Below are positions 36,118 to 63,252 of a stretch of 64,000 bases of DNA, piece after piece. A program made the position numbers and the translations under genes. Every line of letters begins with the position of its first letter. The first letter of the stretch is position 1. The notes under the pieces are model-generated. The model ran no database searches. It was not told where the DNA came from and saw only the letters and a list, made by a program, of their open reading frames with translations. Source of the stretch: Bacillota bacterium (GTDB lineage: Bacteria > Bacillota > Peptococcia > Peptococcales > BICA1-8); contig JBMOKT010000008.1 in assembly GCA_049323895.1 (NCBI GenBank), forward strand, positions 250,243 to 314,242, in the 5' to 3' direction.

Positions 36118-36155
36118 CCCCTGCTTAACATATGTGGTGCACTTTTAATGCTGGT

Positions 36156-37091: not shown

Positions 37092-37238
37092 AACAACACC
37101 TCTAATTGGATACGGGCAGAATTTATTTAGCACCGTTTTATTTGGTGATTATATAAATTCTAGGCAGTCCTTAAATATCCTTTTAAAAGAAATCTTTTAT
37201 GTTATACTTTAGATACATAAAGGTAAGGAGGTATTGCC

Positions 37239-40853: not shown

Positions 40854-40993
40854 TGTTATTTACACTCCTTTAATTATGTATTACTAAATAGCATTCCTGG
40901 AGGCAGCCTGGCAATCTTAGCATATAACCTTAGACCCTAGGCTTTGCGTCCTGCCCTTTCGAACAGTTTGCCCTTATTGTAAATAATTGATTT

Positions 40994-41153: not shown

Positions 41154-42872
41154 TTAAATTTTAAACTGGCTGATTTTATCCCCTAACTTCTGAGTCATAT
41201 TTTCCAACTCGGACATAGTTGCCCCTATCTCTTCCAATGTACCTGCCTGCTGTTGAATACCTGCTGAAATTTCCTGGGCATTTGCCGCAGTTTCATCAGT
41301 CACTGTAACAATATCGTTTACAGAGGCTGTCATTTCCTGACTCAATGCCGACTGCTGCTGGGCGGCAGCGGCCATTTCCTGGATTTGCGTATTTATTCTG
41401 CTTATTGCATTTACAATCTCAACAATTCTGCCTTTAGCCCCCTGAACCTGGGTAACAGTACTAGTAATCTGCTCACCGGTTTTATTGCTGGTAATAACAG
41501 CACTCTGGGTTTTTTCTTGTATATTCTTAATAAGATTTTGAATTTCTTTAGCGGATTTTGCAGATTCCTCTGCTAGTTTTCTAACCTCATCAGCAACAAC
41601 GGCAAAGCCCCGTCCATGTTCACCGGCCCTTGCTGATTCAATAGCGGCATTGAGGGCTAAGAGGTTGGTCTGGTCTGCAATACTGCTGATAATATTGACA
41701 AAACCAGAGATATTGTCAGTTGCTTGAACCAAATCCTGCACAACTCTGCCTATCTCTTGTCGACCAGTATCCAAATGGTTAACAGTTTCTTCAACCTTAT
41801 TCATAGCCTGCAAAGTATCCTCGGACTGCTTGCTGATTTTCATACCGACCTCCGATGCATTTTGGGAGGAATTTGCAACATGCTCCGCAGATTTAGCAAC
41901 TTCTTCTGCACCAATATTTGTTTCCTTGAGTATTCCGGCATTGCTTTGGGCACCTTGGGCAACTTTATCTATTCCGATAGCAATATTTGTCATGCTGGCA
42001 TTAGATTCTTCCAAAGCCTTGCTGATTTGTTCAGTAGATAAAGTAACTTGTGATATGGTAGTGTTTATCTCCTCTACTAAAGAACGGTTGGCATTAATCA
42101 TGGTGTTAAAACTATCGGATAAGATTCCTAACTCATCTTGTGATGATATCTCGGACTTAACTGTTAAATCTCCCTTGCTGGCTATTTCCATATTTTCCTT
42201 TAAAACTTTTATTGGCTTAAGAATATACCTATTGGCATAAAACAGTACAGCAATAATTGTTAACAACACTAATAAAACCAGGGCGATTATGATTTTCTGC
42301 CTCTCAGCATTCATAATTTCTGTAACATCATTGATATATATACCTGTTCCTACTATCCACTCCCACGGAGCAAAAGTAGAAACATAGGACATTTTGGGTT
42401 CAATTTTAGTAGTATCATCATAATACTGCCATTGGTAATTTAAGTACCCTGAGCCTTGCCTTTTAGCAATATCTACAAACTCTAAAAATATTTTTACCCC
42501 ATTGGGATCAACTATATTGGAAGCATCCTTGTTTTCTAATTCTGGTTTAAAGGGATGCATTAATACATTAGGCGTAAAGTCATTAATCCAGATATAGTCC
42601 TGGGCACTATCGCCAAATCTAATGGCTCTTAAAGCATCCTTAGCAGCTTTTTGTGCCTCTACAGTTGTTAGCTGTCCTTTCTCGGCTTGGGAATGGTAGA
42701 ACTTTATAATTGAAAGTGCGGAATTAACCAAATCCCTGGTCTGGTCTTCTTTTTCGTGATAAATTTTATCACTGATAGACGGTAGAATATAGAAGAAGGT
42801 AACAAGTGTAAATAAAACTATGGGTATAATCGCTAAGATAACTAATTTTCCTTTAATACTTTTTCCAAACAT
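41154..42872 (-). CDS. methyl-accepting chemotaxis protein with a Cache-type extracellular sensor
   Basis: TM, periplasmic Cache-like domain, TM, HAMP, and the conserved signalling hairpin [39 protein letters not shown]. Confidence 0.9.
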
Positions 42873-46100: not shown

Positions 46101-46720
46101 TCACCAAGTTCACTTTGCCTGCCTCTGATCTTCTCTTCATTTATTTTAGTATGGTTTAAACGGTTTTTAATGTTCTGTATTAACTGTTCACCGTATTTCT
46201 CCAGGTTAAAAATCCTTTGCAGCATTTTCCTTCTTTCCGCACCCTGCAGTGTTAAAAACTCTTGGAATTTGCCCTGGGGAAGGACAACAGCACGGGTAAA
46301 ATCCTCTGAAGTAAGCCCTAGAATACCCTGTATTTTTTCATCCACTTCCCTTTTTTTATCAGCAATGACCTGAGGTTCATCCTCCATGAATTCCATCAAA
46401 CGGCAGCTCTGTTGATTTATGCTGCCGTCACTGCTCTTCTTATAAGAGCGTTCAGCACTAAACTTCCTGTCTCCTATTTCAAAGGTAAAACCCACATATG
46501 CTTTTTCCTCATTTTGATTAATAATTCCCGAAGTAGCACCCTTTGCCCGCTCAACCTTACCATACAAGGCCAGGGTTATAGCATCGAGAACCGTTGATTT
46601 GCCGCTGCCCGTTGGTCCGAATATTCCAAATACGCCTGCTTCACAAAGGGAAGTAAAATCAATTTCCTGTTGCTCCCGAAAGCTATTGAGACCTGCAATA
46701 ATTAGATGAATAGGTTTCAT
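43115..46720 (-). CDS. sbcC: SbcC (Rad50-like) exonuclease ATPase subunit
   Basis: 1201 aa. Walker A GPTGSGKST, long coiled coils with the CPVCG zinc hook, signature LSGGETF, Walker B FFFLDEGFG. ATGA overlap with sbcD. Confidence 0.95.
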   Translation of the reverse strand: MKPIHLIIAGLNSFREQQEIDFTSLCEAGVFGIFGPTGSGKSTVLDAITLALYGKVERAKGATSGIINQNEEKAYVGFTFEIGDRKFSAERSYKKSSDGSINQQSCRLMEFMEDEPQVIADKKREVDEKIQGILGLTSEDFTRAVVLPQGKFQEFLTLQGAERRKMLQRIFNLEKYGEQLIQNIKNRLNHTKINEEKIRGRQSELGDASPEAIEHLTENLAQETKILQTLKTKAEEFRKREEDFKQILQLQEELAQELEIQNSLQSLQEEIRGKEERLKGAVQADYLKPFITYLKNENKLKRQRTEEAAILKAQLVLVKQAYQGAEQDLLKWQEIINTQGEKLKITLHRLEDAFIAEQKRDELQGKRELLLAEYTALNNEYQALIAEIKELDKKKTFFQNKRDDLNGAIQAKEQLLKQEEVINRQKETLQVFMDAEKGLLEFNLNKKNKEENFDAIQKKVKAYQHELEEISRRQQIKEQENHQLPRPVLEQDELNSLLMKISQWEKEVFTLEHYQTLLVNIQKQISENRDKQRLFERQLQEQVLYLNQAALQREKFVSAVNDLEILIKEKEVQSYGSLLSSRLQKDIPCPVCGSLDHPNPAPILDGSEDGIANLQNALLSHKQNLKEIEEKYRVIAQEIAALKIQNENIKKEEIQLESKARELQTALDLNVQNLPGNWQQLSLAHIKMKLAEEKEYYQNQQTLLDSYTSHKERLAKEADALSKQVNQVYVFLKQEEARAAAMGEDLEDLKEKEKKFIIERDEKLLAFKNSAQGLSAEEILNRVDLLKEAKQDVERLRSLEKEAVQQLDYYYEQLSLRQDLKAKLLQSLEVIKQEGQNSNNLISEYTSKINDITGGKKPKEAKELVLIELESINRQFNKAVENKEQTKISWEEKKGALLSADQEIEGICFRIFEGERQLNDKLAEYGFNSCEEAESSFLLPAECEKLKGEIESYRNSLLIKEKNIEALENKLAGRSITQEQWLQFSRQKITLEKELEEAQAKVHKLEGNLQTLNNNYVRWQDLERERKLLSMELDKLVLLEKLFRGNTFVEYMAEEQLISISLDASRRLGELTNYRYALEVDSEGGFIIRDDANGGLRRPVATLSGGETFLTSLALALALSGQIQLKGKYPLQFFFLDEGFGTLDSFLLETVMNSLERLHTEKMTIGIISHVPELRARISRSLVVEPALKGGRGTCLSIETA

Positions 46721-47949
46721 TGAGACTCAACCTCTCTCCCTTGATCCACTAATTCCAAAAATAATTTAAGAAGTTCGTCCTTTGGCTCGGACTGAAAATT
46801 CTTCATGTAAAAGCTTTTAAAAAGTTCATCTATTGGAAGATTTATGCGGTCTTCCCATTGTGCCTCTTTTTGAACCATATTTTTTAAAACAGGTCTGATA
46901 TTAATAATATCCGGTCTTATTTCCTTCAATTGTTTAATCTCACCTATAGTTAAAGGCTCATCCAGATGGATAGCCAAGTCGATCCAAGCAAGGTAATCTC
47001 TTTTTTCCTGGCACCATTTAAATACCTGCTGTATTCCTAAAGGGGCATCCCACCGAACTAAGGGGCGGCCGCTGGATAAAGGTATCTCTTTTACAACAGT
47101 TTTACTGCCGGGGCTGCATTCTATCAAATACACAACCTTGGTCTGACCCGCTTCGGAAAAACTGTAGGCCAAAGGAGAACCCGAATACCTCGCATTTTCT
47201 TTATCCCCCACCCGCTGGGGTCTATGCAAATGACCCAATGCAGTATAATGAGCTTTTTCTAAAGGAAGCATTTGTATATCGACAGCAGGGGAACCACCCA
47301 ACTGGATAGGACGCTCCGATTCACTCTCCCTGCCCCCCCGCACAAATAAGTGACTCAGGCAAAGGTTCACTGTATCGTGTCGATAATAACTGCTAAGGTT
47401 ATTTATAAGGGCTCCCACTCTTTGGGAGTAACTTTTTTGCATGACTTCTTCATCCAGGTTAACGGCTAAAATTTCCTTTAGCCTTTGTTCTGAGGGGTAC
47501 GGAAGAGCAATTATCACTGCCTGATGGCTGCAGCCGGGAACAGCCAGTTTTAACCAACCCGGACCTGCATTCACCCTCTGCACCTTCCCCGTCTTAGTAC
47601 CCAATACTGACGCCTGTTCCTTAGGCAGACCCAACAGAGTAATTCCCAACTGTTCCGCTAAGGGATCAGAGGCTGTAATCCGTTCCGGATTGTCATGGTT
47701 GCCGGCAATGGCAACTATCCCCCTCCTGCCTCCTGCCGACAGATTAAATAGTCCTTGATAAAAAAGCTGTTCCGCTTTGGCAGGGGGGTTGGGGGTGTCA
47801 TAGATATCACCTGCTATCAGCACCAGGTCAACCTTCTCCTGCTCTACAATATCACACAATTCATTTATAAATGCTTCCTGCTCTTGGTGCCTGTCCCTGC
47901 CTTCCAGAGACCGCCCCAAATGCCAGTCTGATGTATGTAGGATACGCAT
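46717..47949 (-). CDS. sbcD: SbcD (Mre11-like) nuclease subunit
   Basis: Start at MRILHTSDWHLGR. Phosphoesterase motifs GDIYD and GNHD. Confidence 0.9.
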   Translation of the reverse strand: MRILHTSDWHLGRSLEGRDRHQEQEAFINELCDIVEQEKVDLVLIAGDIYDTPNPPAKAEQLFYQGLFNLSAGGRRGIVAIAGNHDNPERITASDPLAEQLGITLLGLPKEQASVLGTKTGKVQRVNAGPGWLKLAVPGCSHQAVIIALPYPSEQRLKEILAVNLDEEVMQKSYSQRVGALINNLSSYYRHDTVNLCLSHLFVRGGRESESERPIQLGGSPAVDIQMLPLEKAHYTALGHLHRPQRVGDKENARYSGSPLAYSFSEAGQTKVVYLIECSPGSKTVVKEIPLSSGRPLVRWDAPLGIQQVFKWCQEKRDYLAWIDLAIHLDEPLTIGEIKQLKEIRPDIINIRPVLKNMVQKEAQWEDRINLPIDELFKSFYMKNFQSEPKDELLKLFLELVDQGREVESQ

Positions 47950-48000
47950 ATCTTGCATCTCCCTTCTTTTCGATGTTACGTCTAGTAAGCTAGTCTTCAT

Positions 48001-48267
48001 GATAATACACTTTAAGTGGCTACAATTGTTATAGTGCTACAGTGCTACCGAAAAATACTAAAAGGTTATTTACTATGAAAGCTGCACATTCATGGTCACA
48101 CTTTCTTTTACTATCACACTATCAAACTATCAAACTATCGCACTCACAAACTACCAGCACTAGCCACTAGCCACTAACAACTAGCCACTGTTTTTTACCA
48201 GTCACCAGTCACCAGTCACCAGTCACCAGTCACCAGTCACCAGTCACCAGTCACCAGTCACCAGTCA
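48001..48267 (-). repeat. mosaic island D between addA and sbcD, inverted orientation, ending in (CCAGTCA)x10
   Basis: gtgctacagtgctacc 48034-48049; ctatcacactatcaaactatcaaactatcgcactcacaaactacc 48111-48155; cactagccactagccactaacaactagccactg 48158-48190; a perfect 70-nt heptamer array at 48198-48267 abutting the addA TAG stop. Confidence 0.9.
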
Positions 48268-51200
48268 CTATAATTGTATCGCTTTACCTAGACTAAACAA
48301 ATACAAATATCTTTCTTTAACCTTTTCCTTAGTTATAGTCTCTACAGCTCTGGTATAAAGGTTTATTTGCCCGGAGTACCTATCGATAAACCCTGAGAGG
48401 TCTTCATCCTTTATTTGGTCACTTTTATAATCAATTAAAACCCAGCCTCCATCCTCATACCACATGCAGTCAATTACCCCTTGCAGTAATACTTTATCAG
48501 AGGTATCGGTCCCAATATCATCATAAATCTCCTGAACATCCAAGGTTAAACTGAAGGGAATTTCCCTTTCTGCCCTTTGGGCCCTTTTAAGTCTTTCCCC
48601 TAGAGAACTCTCAAAAAAGAGCAGGATATTTTCCTGGGGGATTGACTCTTTTTGTTCTGGAGTTAGTAACTCCCTGCTTAATAAATCCTCCAGAAACATC
48701 TCCAGGTATTGCCCGGTGATTTTCTGATGTAATGGAATATGCTGCATCACACAATGGATAGCAGAGCCTTTTTCTACAGCTGTCAAAGCCTTCTTCTTTT
48801 GAAGAAATACGGGGCGCCTTCTAAATCCTTGAAAAATCCTGTTTTCTTGTAAATCAAGCTGCACTTCCTGAAATTTATGCTTAATCTCGGTAACACTAAC
48901 TTTAGCCCCTTTGGTGCTTACCCCGGGAAAGGGGTATGTCCACTCCAGCTTTTCTGCAACCTGTCTATAAAGCTGGGGATCAATCTGTACCTGCTGTAAA
49001 TCCTTAATGCTTTCCAGCATTTCCCTGGTTGCTGCAACCTGCTCATCTTCCTGGACGTTTAATTCTTCTTGCAGAACGGCAATTTCCCACGCAGATTCAT
49101 CTTCCAGCAGGGAAATTGCCTGCTGTGGGACGAATCTACGCAAGGGGATGCCATCCCTGTGCCTGGTTAACGCAGGTCCAAGCCAATCCAAAAAGCTGTC
49201 GGCCTGGGCAAGGAAGCTGTCGGGAATTTTAACAGAGGGAATGTCTAAAAATTGAGCCCAGTCCTCAATTTGTTTCTGTACCTTTCTTACAGTACCAATC
49301 ATTATCAACTTTTCCCTGGCTCTGGTCATAGCTACGTAAAGTATGCGCATTTCTTCCGCCAAGGTCTCTAGCTTAACCTTAATATCTATGGCAAGTTTAG
49401 CAATTGTTGGATATTTAATCCTCTTCTCAGGATCGATAAAAACAGGTCCAAGACCTAAATCCTTATGCAGAGTAATATCTTGCCTGGTATCCAGCATGTT
49501 AAACTTTTTGCCCAGCCCGGCAATAATTACAACGGGAAATTCCAAGCCCTTGCTTTTATGGATACTCATAATACGGACGACGTTTTCGTTTTCACTAAGG
49601 GCTTTAGCCGCCTCTAAATCACTTTTATTTTCCTCCATTCTTTGCAGGAAACGGAGAAACATAAACAGCCCCTTGAAACTGGTTGTTTCAAATTGCCTGG
49701 CCCTGTCGTGGAGGGCCCGCAGGTTTGCCTGCCGCTGGCTTCCCCCGGCCATTGCACCTACATAATCGAAATAACCCGTTTCCCGATACAAAGTCCAAAT
49801 AAGGTTTGCCAGTTCATTCTGACGGGCCAGGGTTCTCCAGTTTTCCAGCCGGGACAGGAATCCTCCCAATTTTTCGGCTAATTGGTCCTTTGTTTTCTCG
49901 ACTGTTTGTAATATAGCCTGGTAAAAATCACCTTGAGGACAATGAAGTCGGATATTTGCCATCTCCTGGGAACTTAATCCCACTAGAGGCGAGCGAAGCA
50001 CCCCAGCCAAAGGGATATCCTGCCGGGGATTATCTATAATCTTTAATAAGGAAAGCATAATCTGTACTTCCGTAGCTTTAAAATATCCCCTTCCCAGTTC
50101 TCCATAAACAGGAATTCCCAGTAAACGGAACCTTTCCAGAAAGGTCTCTGCAGAACCTTTAGGTGAGCGTAGAAGGATAACAATATCTGAATAGGTAATG
50201 GTCCGATAGTCGTTTGTTTTTTTATCAAACACAAGACAATTCTGCTCTATTAGTTCCTTAATCCGATTACCTATTATAACCGCTTCCCGTTCTACGGAAG
50301 TCAGTTGCTCTGCCTCTTCCATATCTTTTTCTACTAAATAAAATTCTACCGGACCTGCCAAACCAGCTTGCCCTTGACATTCTGGGTAAACTACGCCGCA
50401 TCTGAGGCGAGCCTCCTGGTTATATTCTATCTCCCCTAAATCCTTGCCCATTAATTGCTGAAAAACAAAGTTTACTCCATCCACAATCTCCTTGCGGCAG
50501 CGGAAATTACTAGCTAAATCTATCCGCCGGTCTGCATATCCTTCCTTGTTTGCAAAGCGGTAATATTTTTCCTGGAAAAGTTCAGGCCTTGCCAGACGGA
50601 AGCGGTAAATACTCTGCTTCACATCACCCACCATAAAAAGATTATCAGGACGGGAAACAAGCTGTAATATGGTTTCTTGAACGTCATTAATATCCTGGTA
50701 CTCATCAACTAAGACTTGGGAGTACTTTTCCTGGAGCTTCATGCTGACGGCAGAAGGTATTATCTGTTCAGGAGTTGAATTTGTTGCCATTAACAGTTGG
50801 AGACAGTAATGCTCTAAGTCATTGAAATCCATAATGTTTCGCCGTATCTTGGCCTTGGCATACTCTTCCTTAAACTCCATAACTAAGCGTCCGAGAAGCT
50901 CCAAATAAGGTTGTACAATTACTAAATCATTAATAAAGTCCTGGGGTAAACGATGAAAATATTTATTCTGCAGTCCTTTCAATATATCTTTGGCCTTATC
51001 TCTAAAGTATTTTACCTTTTCCTGCAGCTCCGGATTACTTTCTTCTTTTTTTGCCCTAGGCAGCCTGCCAAAGGCCGCAGTGGATGCCGCATCGTAGGCT
51101 TCCTTCCAGGAAAGGGATGCTGCATTTAATATATCTTCCAAGAGATAAATTTCCTCTTGAAGTGTAGCAATATAAGCGGCAGGTCCTCCCGGTGCCCCTG

Positions 51201-51891
51201 CCAGCCTAAATGCCTGCACCAGCATTTCCCGGGCAGTACTGAATTCCATTTTAATGCTTGGCAATAGGTATTGAAACCATTCCGAGCCAGTAAAACCAGT
51301 AATTACCTCTTCCAGCCATTTTTGCGGCCAGGGATTGCTTTGGGCAAAGGAAAACAGTTTGATTATCAAGTTCTGTATCAAGACATCATCCTGTGAACCT
51401 CCGTAGGCATCTATCAATTTGCTAAAACCGTCGCCGTCGACGCAGTTTGTGTAGTATTTTTCCAGGATTTCCTCCAATACATCCAGCCGTAAAAGTTCTG
51501 CCTCCGTCTCGTCAGCAATTCGGAAGTGGGGGTCTATGCCTAGAATATAGAAATTCTCCTTCACCACCTCCATGCAAAAGGAATGGAGTGTCATAATTGA
51601 TGCTTTATTAAGCAGGGTACTCTGCCGGTACAAATGACGGGAAAGGGGGTTTCTTTTTGCCGCTTGTGCCAGTGCTGCACCTATTCTCTCCTTCATCTCT
51701 GCGGCAGCGGCATTAGTAAAGGTTACCACCAAGAGGGCATCCACATCAACAGGAGCCTTTTCATCACAAATCAGTTTGATAATCCGTTCTACCAATACAG
51801 CAGTTTTTCCCGAGCCTGCTGCTGCTGCCACTAAAAGGTTGCAGTTGCGAGTATATATTGCCTGTTCCTGTTCCCTTGTCCAGGTGGTCAT
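48268..51891 (-). CDS. addA: ATP-dependent helicase/nuclease AddA
   Basis: 1207 aa. UvrD-type helicase (AAAGSGKT..) with a C-terminal RecB-family nuclease (GVIDCMW..LIDYKSD). AAGGAG SD. Confidence 0.95.
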   Translation of the reverse strand: MTTWTREQEQAIYTRNCNLLVAAAAGSGKTAVLVERIIKLICDEKAPVDVDALLVVTFTNAAAAEMKERIGAALAQAAKRNPLSRHLYRQSTLLNKASIMTLHSFCMEVVKENFYILGIDPHFRIADETEAELLRLDVLEEILEKYYTNCVDGDGFSKLIDAYGGSQDDVLIQNLIIKLFSFAQSNPWPQKWLEEVITGFTGSEWFQYLLPSIKMEFSTAREMLVQAFRLAGAPGGPAAYIATLQEEIYLLEDILNAASLSWKEAYDAASTAAFGRLPRAKKEESNPELQEKVKYFRDKAKDILKGLQNKYFHRLPQDFINDLVIVQPYLELLGRLVMEFKEEYAKAKIRRNIMDFNDLEHYCLQLLMATNSTPEQIIPSAVSMKLQEKYSQVLVDEYQDINDVQETILQLVSRPDNLFMVGDVKQSIYRFRLARPELFQEKYYRFANKEGYADRRIDLASNFRCRKEIVDGVNFVFQQLMGKDLGEIEYNQEARLRCGVVYPECQGQAGLAGPVEFYLVEKDMEEAEQLTSVEREAVIIGNRIKELIEQNCLVFDKKTNDYRTITYSDIVILLRSPKGSAETFLERFRLLGIPVYGELGRGYFKATEVQIMLSLLKIIDNPRQDIPLAGVLRSPLVGLSSQEMANIRLHCPQGDFYQAILQTVEKTKDQLAEKLGGFLSRLENWRTLARQNELANLIWTLYRETGYFDYVGAMAGGSQRQANLRALHDRARQFETTSFKGLFMFLRFLQRMEENKSDLEAAKALSENENVVRIMSIHKSKGLEFPVVIIAGLGKKFNMLDTRQDITLHKDLGLGPVFIDPEKRIKYPTIAKLAIDIKVKLETLAEEMRILYVAMTRAREKLIMIGTVRKVQKQIEDWAQFLDIPSVKIPDSFLAQADSFLDWLGPALTRHRDGIPLRRFVPQQAISLLEDESAWEIAVLQEELNVQEDEQVAATREMLESIKDLQQVQIDPQLYRQVAEKLEWTYPFPGVSTKGAKVSVTEIKHKFQEVQLDLQENRIFQGFRRRPVFLQKKKALTAVEKGSAIHCVMQHIPLHQKITGQYLEMFLEDLLSRELLTPEQKESIPQENILLFFESSLGERLKRAQRAEREIPFSLTLDVQEIYDDIGTDTSDKVLLQGVIDCMWYEDGGWVLIDYKSDQIKDEDLSGFIDRYSGQINLYTRAVETITKEKVKERYLYLFSLGKAIQL

Positions 51892-52180
51892 GGTAACAAC
51901 TCCTTATTCGTCGTGTCGTCTACTCATCTTTTCGTCTTTTCGTCTAGTGGTCATCTCGTGTTGGTCTAAAGTATTAGGTCTGTATGACGACTAATGGTTT
52001 TCATTATTGGTCGGTATTTCGGCTAAAGGGATTTACTGAATGTCAACATTTTTAACCCTGTCTCGCGAATGAGCTTGCGATTGAACAAAAGGATGTTATT
52101 CGGTGACACGGTTTTTTAGCCAACTAGCCACTGACTGATTTTTCTAGTCAGCAACAAGCTCCAAGTCACTAGTCACTACT
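51892..52180 (-). repeat. mosaic island E between addB and addA
   Basis: TCGTC-rich words (cgtcgtgtcgtct, ttttcgtcttttcgtct) at 51909-51946; agccaactagccactgactg 52128-52147; agtcactagtcactact 52164-52180, overlapping the last codons and the TAG stop of addB. Confidence 0.8.
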
Positions 52181-55100
52181 TAACAATTCCCAGACTTGCT
52201 CATTACTTAATGGCTTAATAGTACGGAAGCAGTTGTTTTCTACCTGCCGGTCAAACTGGCAGACAATCAAAAAGGAACAGTAACTGCAAGCTTGAAAACC
52301 CTTAAACTCATAGGGCGAAATACTCACATCCCCCTTTAGTACAGCTTCTCCCGCCTTTTTCATGATTCCCCTGACATGATTTCGTAAAGCCTCTATCTGT
52401 TCAGTATTTACCGCTTTAGAATTCTTATAAAATTGTCCATCCTTATTGATGGCTGCAGGAATAATAGGTGACCAACCGTCCTTGGTTTCTCCATCCATAA
52501 GTTGAAAAACCTCCTGATCTGCCACCAGCAGCCCCTCCATTTTTAGTTCCTTGAGGATGTTTTTTTCCAGTTCATCCTCGGAAATTGGACCTGTCAAAGA
52601 CAGCATAGGATCCTTTAGAAAAAAATATAATATACCGGCAGGCAGCGCTTCTTTGGTCTGCAGCAGCTGGTCGGCATAAGTAAGGACAATGTCCAAATAG
52701 GTTAACAGTTGAAGCTTTAAGCCATAATAGACCTCCATAATACCTAATCCCGCATTGCCCGACTTATAATCTATTACCCTTAGGAAATACTTTCCTTCCT
52801 TGCAGGCTGCATCCACCCGGTCAATTCTTCCTACTAACTCCATTTCCGTTCCATCTTCCAGGGTTATCTTTAAAGCAGGCAAAGAACCTTGGGGTCCAAA
52901 AGCTGCTTCTAAAGCCACAGGTCTGAATTTGCCCCTGCGGGCATGCTCAGCCAAGATGAGAGCAGCTCTTTGGATTGTCTTTTTAAACCTCTTAGTGAGG
53001 TATTTGTATTTTGCCGAGCTTAAAAGAATTTCCCCCTGTACCTGGGGAATCAGCTCTTCAGCAATATTGTCACAAAGGATTATAATGGCTTTTTTATCTA
53101 ATTGAGTCCAATCCAAGTTCTCAACTTCAAGTTTATTAGCTAAGGATTCTAAGGCCTTGTGGTAAAAACGTCCTAAATCAGGCTGGGAAAGTTTAAAAAT
53201 TTCCCTTTCCCGCAAGCCCAGTCCATAAGTACTGAAATGGGAAAAAGGGCAGGCTTGGAATTTTTCTAAACGGGATACGCTGACCCTTAAGGGGTTGCCG
53301 AACAAACCTCTAGCAGTAAGGGAATCAATTGGTAGGGCCTGATTGGTATGAAACAGACCCTCAACAACCCTTTGCAAACCTAATTTGCCTTGTTGATTTT
53401 GCAAAAGCCATTGGTAGATATTCCACCAAACTGGCTCAACAGGTTGTCCCTCCCTAGCCTGACGCAGTTGTATCCCTAAACCCGATAAAGCCTTTTGGGG
53501 ATGGTTTATAAACTCCGGCTCCATCCAGGATAAAGTTTCACATAGCTTAGGGAAAATATCCTTGATCCTTCTAATGATTGAAGAAGGTCTTAATGCCCTG
53601 CCTTCACTATCGGCCAGGGGATAGCTTAGAACTAAATAGTGGCTGGCCCGGGTCAGGGCCATATAGACTAAAAACTCCTCTGTAAAGACCTTTTCCTTAT
53701 TTCCCGGTGCCAGTTCCAGCCCAATATCCTTTAAATAATCCCGCTCAAAATCATTAAATATTCCTTCCGAACCAGGTCTGGCAGGGAAAATCCCTTCCAA
53801 GACACCTAAAATAAATACACCCTTTAAATTAGGATTTCTTGAACGCTCTAATGAACCAACAACCACCTGGTCCAGACCGGGAGGTATTAAACCTAACTTC
53901 AGACTTTGCAGTCCCGTATCAATAATCTTTATAAAGCTATCCAGATTAAAGGGCTGTGCACCCATGGTTTCTGAGATTTGGTCAAGAATATCCATGATGC
54001 CATCCCAGATTTGGTTGTGTTCCCCTGCTGACACCAGCCGTCCCTGCTCTCCTGCCTCTAGTGAGCAATTCTCCAATTTACGTGAGACATCCAATTCAAC
54101 CAATAAATTATATATGGCTGCAACAGCATCAACATTACATTGGCATTGGCGGATTGCAACTGTAAAAGAATGAAGTTCCTTAATACCCCTCCGGCGAATA
54201 CTATTTATATTACCATTGTCTTTGCATTTCCAATCTTTATGGTGGTGCCACCTTTTACCTCTAATACCATAGGCTAATATATAGTTCTCCAATATATCAG
54301 CATCAGCCCGGCTGATATTAGTCAGGTCCGTTTTGAAATAGCGGGACACAGCCTGATAGGACCAATCTTCCATTACTGCCTCTAAGGCTGACCTGAGCAA
54401 CTCAACTAAGGGATGATGCATAACCGTTCTTTTCCTGTCAATAAAAAAGGGAATTTCGTAATCGGAAAAAATAGTCTCTATCAATAGATCATAATTGTTA
54501 AAGTCTCTTAGGAGTAATGCAATATCCTTATACCGCCAGCCTTCATCCCGGCATAGCCTTCTAATTTCCCCCGCTACCGACTCAACTTCCTCCCGCTGGT
54601 TTTGGGAACTGATAATCCTGATGTTTCTTACTTCTTCATCGAAGGGTTGGGCGGCAGGTGCAAAAAAATTCTCTTCTAAATAACTAAGGTCGCGTTGTTG
54701 GGCAAAACGGTATGGTTTCTCATTAACCGCTAAAACATATGGTTTTTCAATTGGGACGCTGCTTTTCAAGGCAGCATCTGTCAATCTGTCAAAGGTTTTG
54801 TTTGTCTCCTGAAAGATATTTCTTTTGTCCAGGGTCAATAAAACATTGACCCTTTTAGCAGTTTGCAGCAGCACCTTAATTACACTTATTTCCTGGGGAG
54901 TAAAGCCAAAAAAACCATCCAGCCAGATTTCTGAATTAATTATAGTGGGAGATGAATGGGCTTTGACACCTAAAAGGCTTAAGGAATCATCGGGATCAAT
55001 AAATTTATCAGCAAGATAATTTTCCAAATCGGAATATATCAGTTCCAATTCCCGCAGCTTGGATAATAAAAGAGAGTCTTCCTGGCTTTTTGCCTGCAAA

Positions 55101-55528
55101 ACATTGTTTAAATCCTGATTACTGATTTGGTATAGCTTGAATTCAGAAATGGCTGAAGATACGCTATCTATAAAGCCGGGGAAGTCACCGGCTTTGTTGA
55201 AAATTTGCAACTGGTCTTTACGATTTTCTATAAATTGACGAATAACCATATGCTTGCCCAGGTCACTAATATGTACCTTATTGCCTCCGCCTGTTTCCTG
55301 AAACACCCGCCAGGCTAAACGGCGAAAGCTTAAAACCTGTGTACCTATAATACCTTGGAGTTGGGGATGGGAAGCCAGCGCTAATTCGTATTGGAAGGTA
55401 GCCTGTTCAGGAACCAACAAAATATGGGGTTTGTTAAGGGGCGACGATAATAGGTCTTCCTTTATATAATTTAGACAGTATGTAGTTTTTCCTGAGCCTG
55501 CAGGTCCCAAAATGAATCGCAAAGTCAT
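52169..55528 (-). CDS. addB: ATP-dependent helicase/nuclease AddB
   Basis: 1119 aa. Walker A GPAGSGKT, a C-terminal nuclease (GRIDRVD..VIDYKSG) and Fe-S cysteines (CPFSHF.. CSYCSFLIVC). Confidence 0.95.
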   Translation of the reverse strand: MTLRFILGPAGSGKTTYCLNYIKEDLLSSPLNKPHILLVPEQATFQYELALASHPQLQGIIGTQVLSFRRLAWRVFQETGGGNKVHISDLGKHMVIRQFIENRKDQLQIFNKAGDFPGFIDSVSSAISEFKLYQISNQDLNNVLQAKSQEDSLLLSKLRELELIYSDLENYLADKFIDPDDSLSLLGVKAHSSPTIINSEIWLDGFFGFTPQEISVIKVLLQTAKRVNVLLTLDKRNIFQETNKTFDRLTDAALKSSVPIEKPYVLAVNEKPYRFAQQRDLSYLEENFFAPAAQPFDEEVRNIRIISSQNQREEVESVAGEIRRLCRDEGWRYKDIALLLRDFNNYDLLIETIFSDYEIPFFIDRKRTVMHHPLVELLRSALEAVMEDWSYQAVSRYFKTDLTNISRADADILENYILAYGIRGKRWHHHKDWKCKDNGNINSIRRRGIKELHSFTVAIRQCQCNVDAVAAIYNLLVELDVSRKLENCSLEAGEQGRLVSAGEHNQIWDGIMDILDQISETMGAQPFNLDSFIKIIDTGLQSLKLGLIPPGLDQVVVGSLERSRNPNLKGVFILGVLEGIFPARPGSEGIFNDFERDYLKDIGLELAPGNKEKVFTEEFLVYMALTRASHYLVLSYPLADSEGRALRPSSIIRRIKDIFPKLCETLSWMEPEFINHPQKALSGLGIQLRQAREGQPVEPVWWNIYQWLLQNQQGKLGLQRVVEGLFHTNQALPIDSLTARGLFGNPLRVSVSRLEKFQACPFSHFSTYGLGLREREIFKLSQPDLGRFYHKALESLANKLEVENLDWTQLDKKAIIILCDNIAEELIPQVQGEILLSSAKYKYLTKRFKKTIQRAALILAEHARRGKFRPVALEAAFGPQGSLPALKITLEDGTEMELVGRIDRVDAACKEGKYFLRVIDYKSGNAGLGIMEVYYGLKLQLLTYLDIVLTYADQLLQTKEALPAGILYFFLKDPMLSLTGPISEDELEKNILKELKMEGLLVADQEVFQLMDGETKDGWSPIIPAAINKDGQFYKNSKAVNTEQIEALRNHVRGIMKKAGEAVLKGDVSISPYEFKGFQACSYCSFLIVCQFDRQVENNCFRTIKPLSNEQVWELLSSD

Positions 55529-56705: not shown

Positions 56706-57041
56706 GGTAAAGGTAAGCTATTAGGTTAATTTTTCCGTCAGGAAAAGATACACTTTGGGGCTAAATATTCCGTCAGGTATAGAAAAACACCAGTTTGATA
56801 GTGTGATAGTTTGAAAGTTTGATAGTATAATACGTGTCACAATGATTGTCTAGCTTATAGGACGTGACATCGTGTCGCCGTGACATCGAATATCAGCACC
56901 CAATAGTTCTGGGGCTACTGTAGCTACTGTATTTATTTTACCTTTACCTGTCCCAAAAAATATACCCGGAAGCTTACCTCTACCTGTCATGCAGAGTCGC
57001 TTTATAGCTTACCTGACATGCAGTATACCTCCATAGCTCAA
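56706..57041 (+). repeat. mosaic island G between the convergent ecsC and rnhA genes, with GGTAAAGGTAAGCT / AGCTTACCT.TACC inverted termini
   Basis: aaaggtaagctattaggt 56709-56726 (identical to 10608-10625); ttccgtcagg x2; gtttgatagtgtgatagtttgaaagtttgatagt; gtctagcttataggacgtg 56848-56866; cgtgacatcgtgtcgccgtgacatcg; ctactgtagctactgt; agcttacctctacctgtcatgcag 56971-56994; agcttacctgacatgcag 57006-57023. Confidence 0.85.
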
Positions 57042-57527
57042 TCAATCTTCTCTCGCATCTATGGGTAAATCGGGCAGTTGGGCTGCAGTAGTTGCCAACT
57101 GGTCACAACGCTCATTTTCCGGTGTACCGCTATGCCCCCTTACCCAGACAAATTTAACCTCATGCCTAGCAAGGGCTTGCAGAAGCCTTTGCCAGAGATC
57201 GATATTTTTGGCCTTAATCCCTTTTTTGGGGTCCCGGTACCAGCCGTTTTTTTGCCAGCGTTCAATCCACTTTTCTTCAATGGATTTTACAAGATACTGG
57301 GAATCGGAGTAAAGGGTTACCCGGCAAGGCTTTTTCAAAGCCTCCAGCCCTATAACGGCAGCCATAATCTCCATTCTGTTGTTTGTTGTATTTTTGTAAC
57401 CCCCTGATAGCTCCTTGCGGTGGGTTTCACCTTTATCATCGGTAAATAATAAAACTGCCCCATAGCCTCCGGGACCATCAGGATTACCCTTACATGCCCC
57501 GTCGGTATAAATTGTAACCTGCTGCAT
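57042..57527 (-). CDS. rnhA: ribonuclease HI
   Basis: Start at [23 protein letters not shown].. DEDD catalytic pattern (D..E..D..D). GGGAGG SD. Confidence 0.9.
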
Positions 57528-57715
57528 AAACCAACCTCCCAATTTGTGGTTTAATAAAACCTAACCCGGCTTTTGTACCCTTAGATATGCTATTTGCCCC
57601 ACTGATAAAAAACCTCTCCTCTTTATTCTTTGGTTTTAGTTTTTTATTTTCTCCAAATTAGGTAATTTTTCCTTCCTTTTCCTCAGTTTAAGCCACTTTT
57701 ATAAACTGCTAATGT

Positions 57716-58187
57716 CTACTTAAGCCTTGCACTAAACCAATACATTGTTTTAGCTAAAACAACTCCATAAATAATTGCACCTGCAAAATCAGAAGCAGCT
57801 GTATCAAAATGCAATGGTATAGTTGCTTCTATTTTATATAATAGGGAAATGCCATAAAGCAAAAACCAAGTAAATGAACCAAAAATACCACCTTTTAAAA
57901 GATAATTGACACTATTAATTTGAGTGATTAAATAAGCAAAAATAATACCTAAAACTCCAGAAAAAATAATTTGTGCAACCAAAGCAAAAACTGTCTCTAT
58001 TGTATTTTCAGGTTTAATACCATAAATCATAATTGCAGCCCAGTCAATATATCTTAGTTCAGCAACCCCAAAATAAAAAGAAATGGAGTCAAAAATATTC
58101 AGGAGGAAAACCATGGATTTAAGAGATAGATTTGCAAGAGGCTTTTTGGCTGGGATAGTTGGCGGAATTGTTATGGTAAGTTGTTAA
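57716..58187 (-). pseudogene. 4-TM membrane-protein gene whose first ~20 codons are inverted relative to the rest (a split gene in this orientation)
   Basis: The body lies on the minus strand (57716..58114; it starts mid-helix at MVFLLNIF.. with no SD). The missing N-terminus MDLRDRFARGFLAGIVGGIVMV is encoded on the plus strand at 58113-58178. Flipping 58115-58172 between ACCAT (58110-58114) and ATGGT (58173-58177) restores one in-frame 152-codon ORF. Confidence 0.6.
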
Positions 58188-58267
58188 ATATAGTCTTTCC
58201 TATTTTAAATGGAAAATAAAACAAGCATTTATTGTCATATCCCAAAGCCAATAGCCAAACTGATATG

Positions 58268-58317
58268 CTCCCCTTTAGCGGCAGGCAATATTCTTTACCT
58301 GTCTGCCGTAAGGGGAG
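58268..58317. other. long imperfect stem-loop between ATPase paralogue 2 and the split membrane gene
   Basis: CTCCCCTTTAGCGGCAGG..(loop with tctttacctgtc word)..CCTGTCTGCCGTAAGGGGAG. There is no U-tract, so it may be a terminator or an RNA-stability element. Confidence 0.45.
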
Positions 58318-58347
58318 TAGTATATCACTAGGCATAAAATTTATTTT

Positions 58348-61062
58348 TTAGCTGGTTTGCAGCCTGCCTGCAACGGCTCTATCTTTTCTAAAGAGTTTAA
58401 CTATCTCTGAAACAACAAAAGGTGTTAAAGCTAGTGCTAAGGCTATTAAGAAATCATTAACTGGAAGTAATTCAGTTTCAAAAATATCTCTTAAGAAAGG
58501 TACAAATATTACAGCCACTTGTAACGTTGCTGATATAAGAAATGCATAAATTAAGGCACGGTTACCAAAAATACCCCTTTGAAAAAGAGACTGATTTAAA
58601 CTTCTAACATTAAAAGAATGCACTAATTGGGAGAAAGCCATAGTTACAAAGGCCATTGTATGGGCTTGCTCTATTGTTCTGCCCCACTGTAAAGATAACC
58701 AATAAGCTACCAAGGAAATCAAACCAATGGTTGCTCCTAGAATTAAGATATCTTGACCCACTCCACCGGCAAATACAGTTTCTTTCGGATCCCTAGGCTT
58801 TTCCTTCATAACCCCTTTTTCAGGTGGCTCAAGTCCTAATGCTAAAGCAGGAGGTCCATCAGTTACCAGGTTCAGCCATAAAATTTGAATAGGTGTCAAT
58901 GGACTGCCCAAACCTAAGAGAATAGCAGTAAAAATAGCTACAATCTCACCGGTGTTACAGGATAATAAATATTGAATAGATTTTCGTATATTAGAGTAAA
59001 TAGTTCTGCCTTCTTCAACAGCATTAACAATTGTAGCAAAGTTATCATCTAAGAGAACCATGTCAGAGGCCTCTTTGGATACCTCTGTACCGGTTATACC
59101 CATTGCCGAACCAATATCGGCCCTCTTTAAAGCAGGTGCATCATTCACACCATCACCAGTCATTGCTACAATATGCCCATGGGCTTTTAATGCATCAACT
59201 ATTCGTAGCTTATGCTCTGGTGAAACCCTGGCATAAACTGATGTTTTTAATACATTGTCTTTTAATTCTAAGTCACTCATTTTTTCTAATTGCACACCGG
59301 TTAAAACACCATCACCCTTACGCCAAATGTCAAGTTCTCTAGCAATGGCCAATGCAGTGTCCTGGTGGTCACCTGTTATCATAACTGTCTTAATTCCAGC
59401 AGTACGGGCGATAGCAACAGCATCCTTAACTTCTTCCCTGGCTGGATCAATTATTGAATAAAATCCGATAAAAGTAAGGTCTGTTTCCACTGTATCAGAT
59501 TCCGGATTTTCTGGTGCGTCAGTCCATTTGCGGACAGCTAAGGCTAAAACCCTTTGCCCCTGGGAGGCAAGCTTGGAGTTTACATCCAAAAGTTTGACTC
59601 TTGTTTGTTCCGTTAGTTCTATTGAACCTTGTGGTGTCAACAATTCTTTACACCTTGCTATAAGAATATCAGGTGCACCCTTTGTAAAAGATACCACTTC
59701 ATCATTCATCTTATGGAAGGTGGTCATCATTTTACGTGCTGAATCAAAAGGTATCTCTCCTATCCTGGGATACTTCTTATCCAGTTCGCTCTTTTTCAAG
59801 CCTGCTTTTTCTGCCGCTACTACTAAAGCTCCTTCTGTTGGGTCACCAATAATTTTATATCGATTATCAGTAAAATCCAATTGAGCATCACTATTTAAAG
59901 CGCCGCCCTTCAACATAAATTCAATATTTTTATCTGCTGCAGGAGAGATTTGTTCCCCTTTTTCTTTAGTAAATTTACCTTGGGGTTCATAACCAACTCC
60001 AGAAATCTTTAACAATTCATCATTTACATATAATCCGGTGGTAGTCATCTCATTTTTAGTCAAAGTACCAGTCTTGTCAGAACAAATATATGTTGCTACT
60101 CCTAAAGTCTCAACAGCCGGTAATTTTCTAATAATTGCATTTCTGCGACTCATTCTTGTTACACCAAGGGCTAACACAATGGTAACTACGGAAGGCAGAC
60201 CTTCTGGTATGGCTGCAACAGCTAAAGCTATGGCAGTCATAAACATTTCTATCAGATCTTCTCCCCTTAGTACTCCCATTAGAAATGTTACAGCAACAAT
60301 ACCAATAGCTGCTATTCCTAAAATTTTACCTAATCTTGCTAGCTGCTTTTGTAGAGGGGTTGGTTCAGGAGGAGTTTCCTGTAACAGCTGGGCTATTCTG
60401 CCCAACTGAGTCTTCATCCCTGTTTCTACAATAAGAGCCTTACCACGGCCGGCAGTAACGGAAGTGCCTTTAAAGACCATGTTATTACGGTCACCTACGG
60501 GAACTTCCGGTTTATCTATAACCTTGAGATTTTTTTCCGAAGGTACCGATTCCCCTGTTAAAGCAGCCTCATTAACCCTTAAGGAAGCGGCCTCTATTAG
60601 TCTAGCATCAGCAGGAACAGAGTCTCCTGTATCTAAAAGCACTACATCACCAGGAACCAGTTTATCCAGCTCCAACTGATTAATCTTGCCATTTCTCATT
60701 ACCTTTACTGAAGCCTTGGTCATTTCCTTTAAGGCCTTTATGGCCTGTTCTGCCTTGTTTTCTTGATAAACTCCTAAGGCTGCATTTAATACAACTATTA
60801 TCATGATTACACTACTGTCTTCTATTCCTTTTACTATCCCTGAAATTATTGCAGCAACAATTAGGACTAAAACTAGGGGATCCTTCAATTGTTCAACAAA
60901 CATTGACAGTAAACTTTTCGGTGGGGCCTCTTCTAAAGCATTAGGTCCATAGGTGTTAATGCGATTTTCAGCTTCTTGTTGAGTTAAGCCCCTTTCTAAG
61001 TCAGTATTTAGTTCTTTAGCAGCTTGGGAAGCCTCTAATGAATACCACTTTTTTTCAGCCAC
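58348..61062 (-). CDS. P2-type (SERCA/PMR1-like) cation-transporting P-type ATPase, paralogue 2
   Basis: 904 aa, colinear with 5019..7736 and mostly identical by eye (same TGES, CSDKTGTLT, TGDGVNDAPAL, AIPEGLP). GTG start with AAAGGAGG SD. Confidence 0.9.
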   Translation of the reverse strand: MAEKKWYSLEASQAAKELNTDLERGLTQQEAENRINTYGPNALEEAPPKSLLSMFVEQLKDPLVLVLIVAAIISGIVKGIEDSSVIMIIVVLNAALGVYQENKAEQAIKALKEMTKASVKVMRNGKINQLELDKLVPGDVVLLDTGDSVPADARLIEAASLRVNEAALTGESVPSEKNLKVIDKPEVPVGDRNNMVFKGTSVTAGRGKALIVETGMKTQLGRIAQLLQETPPEPTPLQKQLARLGKILGIAAIGIVAVTFLMGVLRGEDLIEMFMTAIALAVAAIPEGLPSVVTIVLALGVTRMSRRNAIIRKLPAVETLGVATYICSDKTGTLTKNEMTTTGLYVNDELLKISGVGYEPQGKFTKEKGEQISPAADKNIEFMLKGGALNSDAQLDFTDNRYKIIGDPTEGALVVAAEKAGLKKSELDKKYPRIGEIPFDSARKMMTTFHKMNDEVVSFTKGAPDILIARCKELLTPQGSIELTEQTRVKLLDVNSKLASQGQRVLALAVRKWTDAPENPESDTVETDLTFIGFYSIIDPAREEVKDAVAIARTAGIKTVMITGDHQDTALAIARELDIWRKGDGVLTGVQLEKMSDLELKDNVLKTSVYARVSPEHKLRIVDALKAHGHIVAMTGDGVNDAPALKRADIGSAMGITGTEVSKEASDMVLLDDNFATIVNAVEEGRTIYSNIRKSIQYLLSCNTGEIVAIFTAILLGLGSPLTPIQILWLNLVTDGPPALALGLEPPEKGVMKEKPRDPKETVFAGGVGQDILILGATIGLISLVAYWLSLQWGRTIEQAHTMAFVTMAFSQLVHSFNVRSLNQSLFQRGIFGNRALIYAFLISATLQVAVIFVPFLRDIFETELLPVNDFLIALALALTPFVVSEIVKLFRKDRAVAGRLQTS

Positions 61063-61228
61063 TATTTAAAACCTCCTTTTTTATTTCTATTTATTATTAG
61101 ATAATTTGTAAATATGAATACAAAATGTTTGTCTTTTCACCTCCGGTTTTATTTATTTTCCAGGGACTATACTTCTATCTTTGATTAGTACAGACTATTA
61201 ATGGTATTAAGTTTGATAAAAATATAAA

Positions 61229-61420
61229 GGTCTTTACCGAAACCGGTAAAGACCACTATATAAAAAGACCTTTACCAATGGTAAAGGTCGAAATTTATTC
61301 AATAAAAGACCTTTACCAAATAAGTAAAGGTCTTGCAACAACGTATATACGTTGACAATAAGCCGGAGATAATTATATCACGAAATGTCGACTTTATTGC
61401 TAAGCTACTCCCCTTTAGGA
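61229..61420 (-). promoter_or_regulatory. yybP-ykoY (Mn2+) riboswitch followed by three tandem terminator hairpins
   Basis: Aptamer at comp. 61325-61420: AAAGGGGAGUAGC..AAAGUCGACA..CCGGCUUAUUGUCAACGU..UUGCAAGACCUUUAC. Three hairpins follow at comp. 61307-61333, 61267-61289 and 61229-61254. Each is GACCUUUACC-type and is followed by a U-run. Confidence 0.9.
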
Positions 61421-61487
61421 CGTATTAAATTGTATATCAAATATTAAGCCATTATGTGATGGAAGTCAAGCATTTTTTTTACCAAGT

Positions 61488-62348
61488 CTAATAACTAAGG
61501 CTGCGAAGTTTCTGAACCCTATCACCAATTGGTGGGTGGGTACTAAATAGCGAGAGCATTTTTTGTGCAGTAAAGGGATTAACTATAAATAGATGACTTG
61601 CAGCAGGGTTAACATTCATAGGCAATACTTTGGATGCCTGTTCAAGCTTTAATAAGGCATTTGCTAATCCTCTAGAATTACCTGCAATTTTAGCACCAGT
61701 TGTATCAGCCATATACTCCCTTGAACGTGATATAGCCATCTGTACTAACATGGCTGCAATTGGTCCTAGAATAATTAGCGGCAAGGCTGCCAGCCCGCCG
61801 GCACCTTCCCCCTCTTCATCACTGCCACCCATACCGCCAAACAATAATGCCCATTGAGCCCAGTTTGCTAAGGTTGTTATTACTCCTGCCATAACGGCAG
61901 CTAGTGTGCTGATTAGTGTATCCCTGTTTTTAATATGTGCCAGTTCGTGGGCTATAACACCTTCTAGTTCTTCATGGTCTAGTATTCTTAATAAACCTTC
62001 TGTAACTGCAACAGCAGCATTCTCCGGATTACGTCCAGTAGCAAATGCATTAGGTTGTTGTGATGGTGTTAAATATAATCTGGGCATAGGCATTTTAGCA
62101 TTTTCCGTTAACCTTTCCACCATCTTATATAAATAAGAATAATGATTCTTATCCAATGGTACAGATTTAGTCATGGAAATTGCTAATTTATCACTAAGCC
62201 AATAGGTTGAAAAATTCATTACTGCAGCAATAACCAGAGCTACTAACATTCCAGTTTTTCCACCCAAAGTTGAGCCTGCCATAATTACTAGAACAGTCAA
62301 AGTGCTCATAAAGATTAGTGTTTTTAACCTATTGTTAAAATTGTTCAA
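61488..62348 (-). CDS. htpX: HtpX-family M48 zinc metalloprotease
   Basis: 286 aa with TM helices and the HELAHIKNRD zinc motif. Confidence 0.9.
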   Translation of the reverse strand: MNNFNNRLKTLIFMSTLTVLVIMAGSTLGGKTGMLVALVIAAVMNFSTYWLSDKLAISMTKSVPLDKNHYSYLYKMVERLTENAKMPMPRLYLTPSQQPNAFATGRNPENAAVAVTEGLLRILDHEELEGVIAHELAHIKNRDTLISTLAAVMAGVITTLANWAQWALLFGGMGGSDEEGEGAGGLAALPLIILGPIAAMLVQMAISRSREYMADTTGAKIAGNSRGLANALLKLEQASKVLPMNVNPAASHLFIVNPFTAQKMLSLFSTHPPIGDRVQKLRSLSY

Positions 62349-62396
62349 TTAAAAATCAACCTCCATATAAAATTATATTTTTATGTGAATTTAGTT

Positions 62397-62822
62397 TTAG
62401 AGTATAAGAGGTGTTTCATTAAGAATCATTGTTAGGGTAGTCATAGTATTTAACAATCTACTAAGGACTGATTGGGATAGCATTTTTGCTTTCTCATCTT
62501 GTTCACAGTTTAATAAACAGTTTTGAAGCTCAATAATTTTCTTCTCAAGATCTTCAAGTTGTTTTTCTATACTCAAGGCAATTTCTAAAGTTTTATCCGT
62601 TTTGGTATTTTTCAATATGTCACAAATTTCAATTAATGAAAAACGTTGTTCCCTTAGCTTCTTTATAACTTCTAAAGTTTGAATTGTTTCTTCGGAATAT
62701 AGGCGATGATTTCCAGAAGTCCGTTCCGTTTCTTGAATTAAGCCCAGTTGAGTATAATAGTCTATTGTTCTTGAACTGACATCAGCTATAGATGCCAACT
62801 CCCCAATACGCAGGTATTTTAT
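62397..62822 (-). CDS. MerR-family transcriptional regulator (start codon uncertain)
   Basis: The HTH ..YLRIGELASIADVSSRTIDYYTQLGLI.. requires a start upstream of the ORF-track TTG at 62798. The in-frame upstream codons have no ATG, GTG or TTG before the stop at 62862-62864. ATA at 62820-62822 would give MKYLRIGELA. Coiled-coil C-terminus. Confidence 0.7.
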   Translation of the reverse strand: MKYLRIGELASIADVSSRTIDYYTQLGLIQETERTSGNHRLYSEETIQTLEVIKKLREQRFSLIEICDILKNTKTDKTLEIALSIEKQLEDLEKKIIELQNCLLNCEQDEKAKMLSQSVLSRLLNTMTTLTMILNETPLIL

Positions 62823-62865
62823 ATCTGTCCCAACGCAAACACTCCCTTTTAAATCAACTATTTAA

Positions 62866-62894
62866 AATATACAGTAGAACGTTACATTAGTCAA
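62866..62894 (-). promoter_or_regulatory. sigma-A-like promoter for merR-htpX
   Basis: Minus strand TTGACT (comp. 62889-62894), a 17-nt spacer containing GTAACGTTCTAC, TATATT (comp. 62866-62871). Confidence 0.45.
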
Positions 62895-63252
62895 AATTAG
62901 CAAGAGTGGAATATTAAGAGAATTAAATAGTTACAATTAGCTTTAAGGAAATGTATATGAAAATTGAATACTTTAGGATGTTTTCCTTTGATTTTAGTAC
63001 ATTATAAAAAAAGCAGCCTATAACTTGTCATTTACAGCCTGTAGGTCCATTGGTATAATAGTTTATAATAAAAAATTAAAAGGAGTATAATTCCTACTAT
63101 GGAAGATAGCATAGAACCTGATTTGTTACTAAAAAAAATGAAATTGATTTTTTGAAGTTAGCAGACAAATAACCCTTTAAACTTATTAATTTTATGGGGG
63201 CTTTTTGTCTTTTTTTATTTTTGTTTATTTACTAAGTGGAGGTTGAGAAAAA

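Follow-up and report, generated by a model that had tools for sequence, protein, structure and literature searches.

Classical promoter invertons include fimS and hin. Known invertons, the intragenic and "partial intergenic" classes among them, are defined by the action of a recombinase on a pair of inverted repeats (Chanin et al., PMC10028968); the thiC inverton carries repeats of 11 nt, and the pipelines used for detection begin with repeats found by einverted (PMC10028968). Microinversions form another described group: the "definite" ones between human and chimpanzee are 17-33 nt long and always lie directly between inverted repeats of 3 nt or more; microhomology-mediated break-induced replication has been proposed for those with very short repeats; and synapsis by a recombinase is physically difficult below the DNA persistence length (PMC8755829). 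Replication template switching, for which Ripley put forward a quasi-palindrome model, is another recognised source: under the four-point model of Loytynoja and Goldman, it can leave an inversion and no other change where just 2-3 nt are identical at the switch points (PMC5453318).

Here we compare with these systems a locus in a window of 64 kb (the whole stretch of 64,000 nucleotides that was analysed), which comes from the metagenome-assembled genome (MAG) of a Bacillota bacterium. Our analysis points to a real, recombinase-independent micro-inversion of 76 bp (58100-58175) that occurred as a single event and inactivated a redundant gene of the DUF6789 family, a reading to which we assign a probability of roughly 0.78.

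The locus as assembled

In the assembly, the minus-strand ORF 57716..58114 translates into a hydrophobic product of 132 aa (MVFLLNIFDS..). Its start matches the Shine-Dalgarno (SD) sequence AGGAGG at one position of six, a score that ties for the lowest among the first starts of 49 long ORFs; by our own count, 34 of these ORFs reach 5/6 or better at one of the first candidate starts. On the plus strand, a perfect AGGAGG at 58101-58106 is followed, after a spacer of 6 nt, by an ATG at 58113, a spacing and strength like those of other genes in the window, and this ATG opens an ORF of 24 codons (58113..58187) encoding MDLRDRFARGFLAGIVGGIVMVSC and a stop. The pentamer ACCAT lies at 58110-58114 and ATGGT at 58173-58177. 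The initial annotation of this DNA had described the MVFLLNIF start without SD, the AGGAGG, the ORF from 58113 and the two pentamers, all of which are present as it reported them. It had further proposed that a small inversion split a membrane-protein gene and that the short ORF is the displaced N-terminus, and had drawn the inversion strictly within the gene, between the pentamers; reversal of 58115..58172 in silico does produce an unbroken, in-frame minus-strand ORF of 152 codons, and to that extent the construction is mechanically sound.

The sequence at the left junction currently reads ..AAAAATATT/CAGGAGG.. (the slash marks the junction, and the piece itself starts with CAGGAGGAAAACC), and that at the right junction reads ..GTTATG/GTAAGTT.. 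(..ATTGTTATG/GTAAGTTG..).

Gene disruption at this site is apparent from neither of the existing annotations. The NCBI annotation lists a "hypothetical protein" of 104 aa (MFZ5943118.1, ACOYVD_03340; window 57716-58030, minus strand) that starts at an internal methionine (MIYGIKPEN) and bears no pseudogene flag, whereas the gene caller applied to the Logan contigs gives the 132-aa MVFLL form. An orphan strong SD and ATG in front of an ORF shorter than 50 aa was found at 14 places in our scan, and in no case but that of 58113 does the ORF correspond to the N-terminus of a truncated neighbour; the window shows no sign of being riddled with events of this type.

Homologues and the extent of the inverted segment

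A search with the restored protein of a protein collection of about 5.8 billion clusters returned 17 relatives. We aligned the 16 full-length homologues, whose identity in the alignment ranges from 30 to 81%. All of them start M-x-L/I-R/K-D-R-..-G-..-G-..-M, with R6, G10 and G14 invariant, and the resemblance of the short ORF to this otherwise missing N-terminus is far beyond chance. The alignment had been named beforehand as one test of the split-gene proposal: no homologue starts at MVFLLN, and the N-terminus is present in 16 of 16. The nucleotide comparison agrees: of the 63 coding bases on the plus strand, 52 match the sense strand of an orthologue (locus L001, 3001-3063), and the number falls to 17 of 63 when these bases are read on the minus strand; the colinear gene body matches L001 at 121 of 150 nt, a level similar to that of the flipped piece. 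These comparisons uphold the proposal that the mini-ORF is the displaced N-terminus of a gene split by a small inversion.

The same alignment argues for different boundaries. In all 16 full-length homologues the corresponding stretch reads ..GGIxM/NIF.., with M21 joined directly to N22 (N/D-I/V-F..) and no VFLL in between, and the DNA of L001 reads ..GGA ATA GTT ATG / AAT ATA TTT..; VFLL thus appears as four extra residues in the 152-aa reconstruction alone, exactly at the junction. The minus-strand codons ATG GTT TTC CTC CTG are the reverse complement of CAGGAGGAAAACCAT, which consists of a canonical SD site, a spacer and the first two bases of a start codon. The AGGAGG had been taken for a mere antisense of two leucine codons; the relation is better read the other way round, with AGGAGG as the native ribosome-binding site (RBS) and the "Leu-Leu" codons as the artefact. 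As VFLL is absent from the homologues and AGGAGG-N6-ATG is restored in front of the gene, the flipped piece is 58100..58175 and not 58115-58172. In the simplest reading it comprises the gene's own SD site CAGGAGGAAAACC and codons 1-21, that is, 13 nt of 5' leader and 63 nt of coding sequence, and the event would accordingly extend beyond the gene proper. On this reading the features are as follows.

58100..58175, plus strand: inverted segment, 76 bp (72 bp without the CA/TG common to both ends)
58101..58106, plus strand: displaced native Shine-Dalgarno AGGAGG of the putative DUF6789 gene, 6 nt 5' of the ATG
58113..58175, plus strand: codons 1-21, MDLRDRFARGFLAGIVGGIVM, the N-terminal tail and the first 16 residues of predicted helix 1
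58176..58187, plus strand: read-through codons V-S-C and stop, antisense of former leader DNA, with no homologue
57716..58099, minus strand: codons 22-148 and stop (NIFDSISFYFG..ARLK), intact and colinear with homologues
58100..58114, minus strand: spurious codons ATG GTT TTC CTC CTG (MVFLL), antisense of the native RBS and start codon
58107..58120, strandless: near-palindrome AAAACCATGGATTT, centred on the native start codon
58173..58177, strandless: ATGGT, the right repeat arm of the initial annotation, a chance match and not a recombination site
58187..58215, minus strand: promoter-like TTTCCA-17-TATATT, just upstream of the right junction, 9/12 matches

Flipping 58100-58175 back yields a protein of 148 aa with AGGAGG-N6-ATG in front of it; 148 aa, rather than the 152 codons proposed initially, is also the length of the three closest homologues, and the alignment with the 148-aa homologues has no indel. 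The restored order is ..AACAACTTAC/CAGGAGGAAAACC ATG GAT TTA .. ATT GTT ATG/AAT ATT TTT GAC.., with junctions ..AACAACTTAC/CAGGAGG.. and ..ATTGTTATG/AATATTTTTGAC.. (un-inverted junction GGAATTGTTATG/AATATTTTTGAC), and the restored leader and RBS read ..CTTACCAGGAGGAAAACCATG... As judged on the coding side, the segment is an exact in-place reverse complement with no base gained or lost. The start context, CCATGG, is a palindrome, and an ATG is therefore present on the minus strand as well; the odds that this new ATG falls in frame are about 1 in 3 (15 nt, or five codons).

The disrupted gene appears, by homology, to be a membrane-protein gene of the DUF6789 family (PF20587), a family of small membrane proteins that is distantly related to DUF1440. 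Precomputed matches to PF20587 exist for 11 of the homologues, to which the restored protein aligns colinearly over its full length with 59-81% identity; the "DUF6789 family protein" of Desulfolucanica intricata (P0005) aligns colinearly with E = 5.6e-56, 65% identity and 100% coverage. Unlike the other family members, the window copy is disrupted, and its reconstruction scores below the Pfam threshold: the 152-aa version reaches 17.7 bits (cut-off 27.1) over profile positions 5-138 of 144. The best match, P0001 (MFZ5944737.1, ACOYVD_11540), has 148 aa, is 79% identical by BLASTP and lies on another contig of the same MAG; it is an intact paralogue within that genome. One further match, P0004, is a 100% identical fragment of 104 aa on a contig of 345 kb; it is the annotated gene of the window itself (MFZ5943118.1, ACOYVD_03340).

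For the paralogue, AlphaFold run on the family alignment gives a confident model (pLDDT 88.8, pTM 0.83) with five helices. Residues 6-30 form helix 1 of this model, and the breakpoint cuts through its middle rather than between helices. Foldseek found no significant match of the model in the PDB (best E = 1.0), and a literature search on the DUF6789 family returned nothing relevant. A scan of a genome-contig collection with the 148-aa restored protein found no relative; the corresponding scan of metagenome contigs found seven distant loci (34-59% identity), among them neither a closer allele nor a second inversion. The homologue loci from metagenome, JGI and Logan contigs are colinear wherever the N-terminus falls within the contig.

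Junctions, assemblies and competing explanations

The junctions placed by the homologues (58099/58100 and 58175/58176) have only CA/TG in common, a microhomology of 2 nt such as accompanies recombinase-independent microinversion and shorter than the flanking inverted repeats of at least 3 nt seen at all definite microinversions in PMC8755829. A local inverted match within 20 nt on either side scores 5, compared with a null mean of 5.8, and a score at least as high occurs at 88% of random sites 76 nt apart; compared in register, the two junctions agree at 8 of 24 positions; and a repeat search found no inverted repeat at the true junctions. Hix- or fim-like recombination sites were rejected, given that both the in-register and the local comparison are at chance. 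Two other candidates were discarded. Exchange at the perfect 8-nt inverted repeat TACCATAA (58018-25) / TTATGGTA (58171-78) would turn 58026-58170 round, in conflict with the finding that the gene is colinear with its homologues from codon 22 on; the pair TAACAA/TTGTTA, as an exchange point, has asymmetric offsets, lying 5 nt outside one boundary and 2 nt inside the other.

Among 38 long ORFs scanned across the 64-kb window, Pfam detects no integrase, resolvase or transposase domain; their Pfam content includes SbcCD, AddAB, EcsC, RNase H, two P-type ATPases and an M48 peptidase, together with MerR, hydrogenase, chemotaxis and transport genes. The initial annotation had considered a dedicated switch unlikely, and the junctions, with no repeat beyond 2 nt, and these 38 ORFs bear this out.

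It is nevertheless worth asking how a reversible phase-variation inverton would fare, in which an invertase encoded elsewhere toggles a cassette of RBS and start codon between ON (148 aa, strong SD) and OFF. Neither half of the gene has a stop or a frameshift, and divergence in the flipped piece does not exceed that in the body; this makes a recent event probable, and it is equally compatible with a reversible one. Invertases can be encoded far from their sites, as is RecV of Clostridioides difficile. The flip is base-precise with no sequence lost on the coding side, the target is a membrane protein, and gene-overlapping invertons are documented (PMC10028968). Against this stand the inverted repeat of at most 2 nt at the true junctions, where site similarity is at or below chance; the lack of a recombinase among the 38 long ORFs; the 76 bp between crossovers, well below the DNA persistence length, at which looping synapsis should be difficult (judging from PMC8755829); the single orientation ever assembled; and the fact that the flip does not recur in related loci, the seven metagenome loci and the JGI and Logan orthologue loci being colinear. 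We therefore regard an inverton of the conventional kind as unlikely. We are more doubtful still of its variant in which the 76-bp cassette is a reversible switch without conventional inverted repeats, turning DUF6789 ON and OFF through a distant or unconventional recombinase or through a recurrent replication-based mechanism; in such a switch the palindromic CCATGG would provide an in-frame ATG in either orientation.

An assembly or sequencing artefact, with an intact gene in the real genome, had been offered initially as one option. The source is a metagenome-assembled genome from one sample, and the two assemblies that we compared may share the same reads. However, Logan contig SRR32167787_19878 (16.7 kb), from another assembly pipeline, is 100% identical to window positions 56863-63114 (6,252 bp), is unbroken at both junctions, over which the two pipelines agree base for base, and runs on for kilobases on either side; by exact look-up, the 132-aa MVFLL product is also encoded on it. 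The intact product has never been assembled: exact look-up among about 15 billion proteins found neither the 148-aa restored protein nor the 152-aa version, and the protein collection contains no relative of the restored protein above 79% identity. A look-up of the adjacent 904-aa ATPase led to the same Logan contig and to no other sample; the organism is thus known from one sample (SRR32167787), in which only the inverted state was assembled. Since a repeat of 2-5 nt is too short for an assembler to invent the junctions, and a de Bruijn graph inversion would need the junction k-mers in the reads, we infer that the inverted arrangement is present in the sequencing reads of this single sample, and we consider an artefact very unlikely.

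The version first proposed, a strictly intragenic inversion of 58 bp (58115-58172) between ACCAT and ATGGT in an ancestral gene of 152 codons, does give an uninterrupted in-frame ORF and does have a 5-bp inverted repeat at its ends. This repeat is at chance level: about 7.6% of the 5-mers in the window recur in inverted form 40-100 nt downstream, and the 400 bp around the site contain 45 inverted-repeat pairs of at least 6 nt. The version would also require a unique VFLL insertion exactly at the junction and an ancestral gene without SD, unlike most genes in the window, and would leave the perfect AGGAGG-N6-ATG as a coincidence, all of which makes it highly improbable. That the locus is a functional split gene, whose 24-aa peptide (with a perfect SD and start) and 132-aa product, both intact, assemble in the membrane into a working protein, is scarcely credible, given that there is no convincing plus-strand promoter, that the 132-aa ORF has no SD, that the break lies inside helix 1 of the paralogue model rather than between helices, and that no other family member is split.

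Consequences, neighbourhood and relation to known systems

The preferred reading, a single micro-inversion of 58100-58175, could have originated from a replication template switch, from microhomology-mediated repair, or from two breaks with excision and reversed rejoining; template switch and break-rejoining are indistinguishable by sequence. From an unchanged upstream promoter, the transcript would now run through the RBS and N-terminus in antisense before it reaches an ATG without SD, and would give at best a poorly translated product of 132 aa from which two-thirds of helix 1 (16 of 25 residues) and the charged N-terminal tail are missing. In view of the SD-less ATG and the loss of the tail and of part of helix 1, we infer that the gene is effectively knocked out, and on the paralogue model it would most likely be off. 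The loss may be tolerated because of the intact paralogue, and the change would be practically irreversible. The 24-codon plus-strand ORF would be a by-product with no evident promoter: the search for a plus-strand promoter found none that is convincing, its single 9/12 match lying inside the gene body at shuffle level. TTTCCA-17-TATATT (58215-58187, minus strand) is a possible, weak candidate for the native promoter, and with it the leader would be very short; the count of promoter-like sites in the region equals the shuffle expectation. An Rfam scan near the site found no RNA family.

Several other features of the neighbourhood deserve mention. The window encodes two paralogous P-type cation ATPases of about 904 aa (5019-7736 and 58348-61062, both on the minus strand) with 74% nucleotide identity over 2.4 kb. 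Upstream of the first, and overlapping its start, lies a 21-codon ORF, MVMDYLLKTILSGYKGGSTIV (7729-7794, minus strand; GGAGG-N7-ATG), which may be a leader peptide or a chance ORF. Between the stop of the second and the DUF6789 promoter region, a strong GC-rich hairpin occupies 58268-58317 (CTCCCCTT..AAGGGGAG, inner stem CGGCAGGCA/TGTCTGCCG); the 172-nt intergenic RNA of the minus strand that contains it folds with -44.5 kcal/mol (z = -3.0), has no T-run after the hairpin and no Rfam match, and the hairpin is probably a terminator or insulator of the ATPase gene. A cluster for the processing of double-strand breaks (SbcC, SbcD, AddA and AddB; 43115-55528, minus strand) lies 2.5-15 kb from the inversion, a nearness that is probably coincidental.

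Farther away, a T-box leader (RF00230, 132 bits, plus strand) is found within 35544-36155, with a terminator near 35780-35812. It is followed by no plus-strand ORF of at least 50 aa until 37239 and by an AAGGAGG near 35970 without a start codon, and the gene next to it (36156-37133, minus strand) has no Pfam match; the T-box may be orphaned, its downstream gene having been lost or rearranged. A c-di-GMP-I riboswitch (71 bits; 40899-40982, minus strand) lies directly upstream of a CheX-CheA operon (40383-40853, 38376-40355), beside which there is an MCP gene (41154-42872).

The event is of an ordinary mutational kind, a micro-inversion giving rise to a cryptic pseudogene with a back-up paralogue. 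Its value lies in being a clean, well-resolved case in which a bacterial gene would be knocked out by the flip of exactly its RBS and first 21 codons, the cause being the flip and not a point mutation or an insertion sequence. It also illustrates a by-product route to a strong "orphan" SD-led mini-ORF. Standard annotation is blind to such events, listing here a 104-aa "hypothetical protein" and no pseudogene, and repeat-based inverton finders would miss the event because there is no inverted repeat; the locus is therefore useful as a caution for both. It would become far more interesting if both orientations were present in the reads, since a true switch would be an unusually small inverton acting at translation initiation without the repeat signature that all current finders use.

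Compared with known systems, the locus shares with intragenic and partial-intergenic invertons the reversal of a small segment over the 5' end of a gene, with predicted loss or recoding of the product. It differs from these and from the fimS- and hin-type invertons in that the defining inverted repeats are absent, no invertase is encoded by the scanned ORFs of the window, one orientation is found in the assemblies, and the segment carries an RBS and start codon rather than a promoter or an internal coding block. In relation to the microinversions of PMC8755829, the segment is longer (72-76 bp vs. 17-33 nt) and its junctions have only CA/TG instead of repeats of at least 3 nt; in contrast to those between human and chimpanzee, the event lies in a bacterial MAG and removes the RBS and start of a gene. 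What it has in common with spontaneous microinversions in general is a short segment turned into its exact reverse complement at the original position, with 2 nt of identity at the junctions, as a one-off event for which no recombinase is needed.
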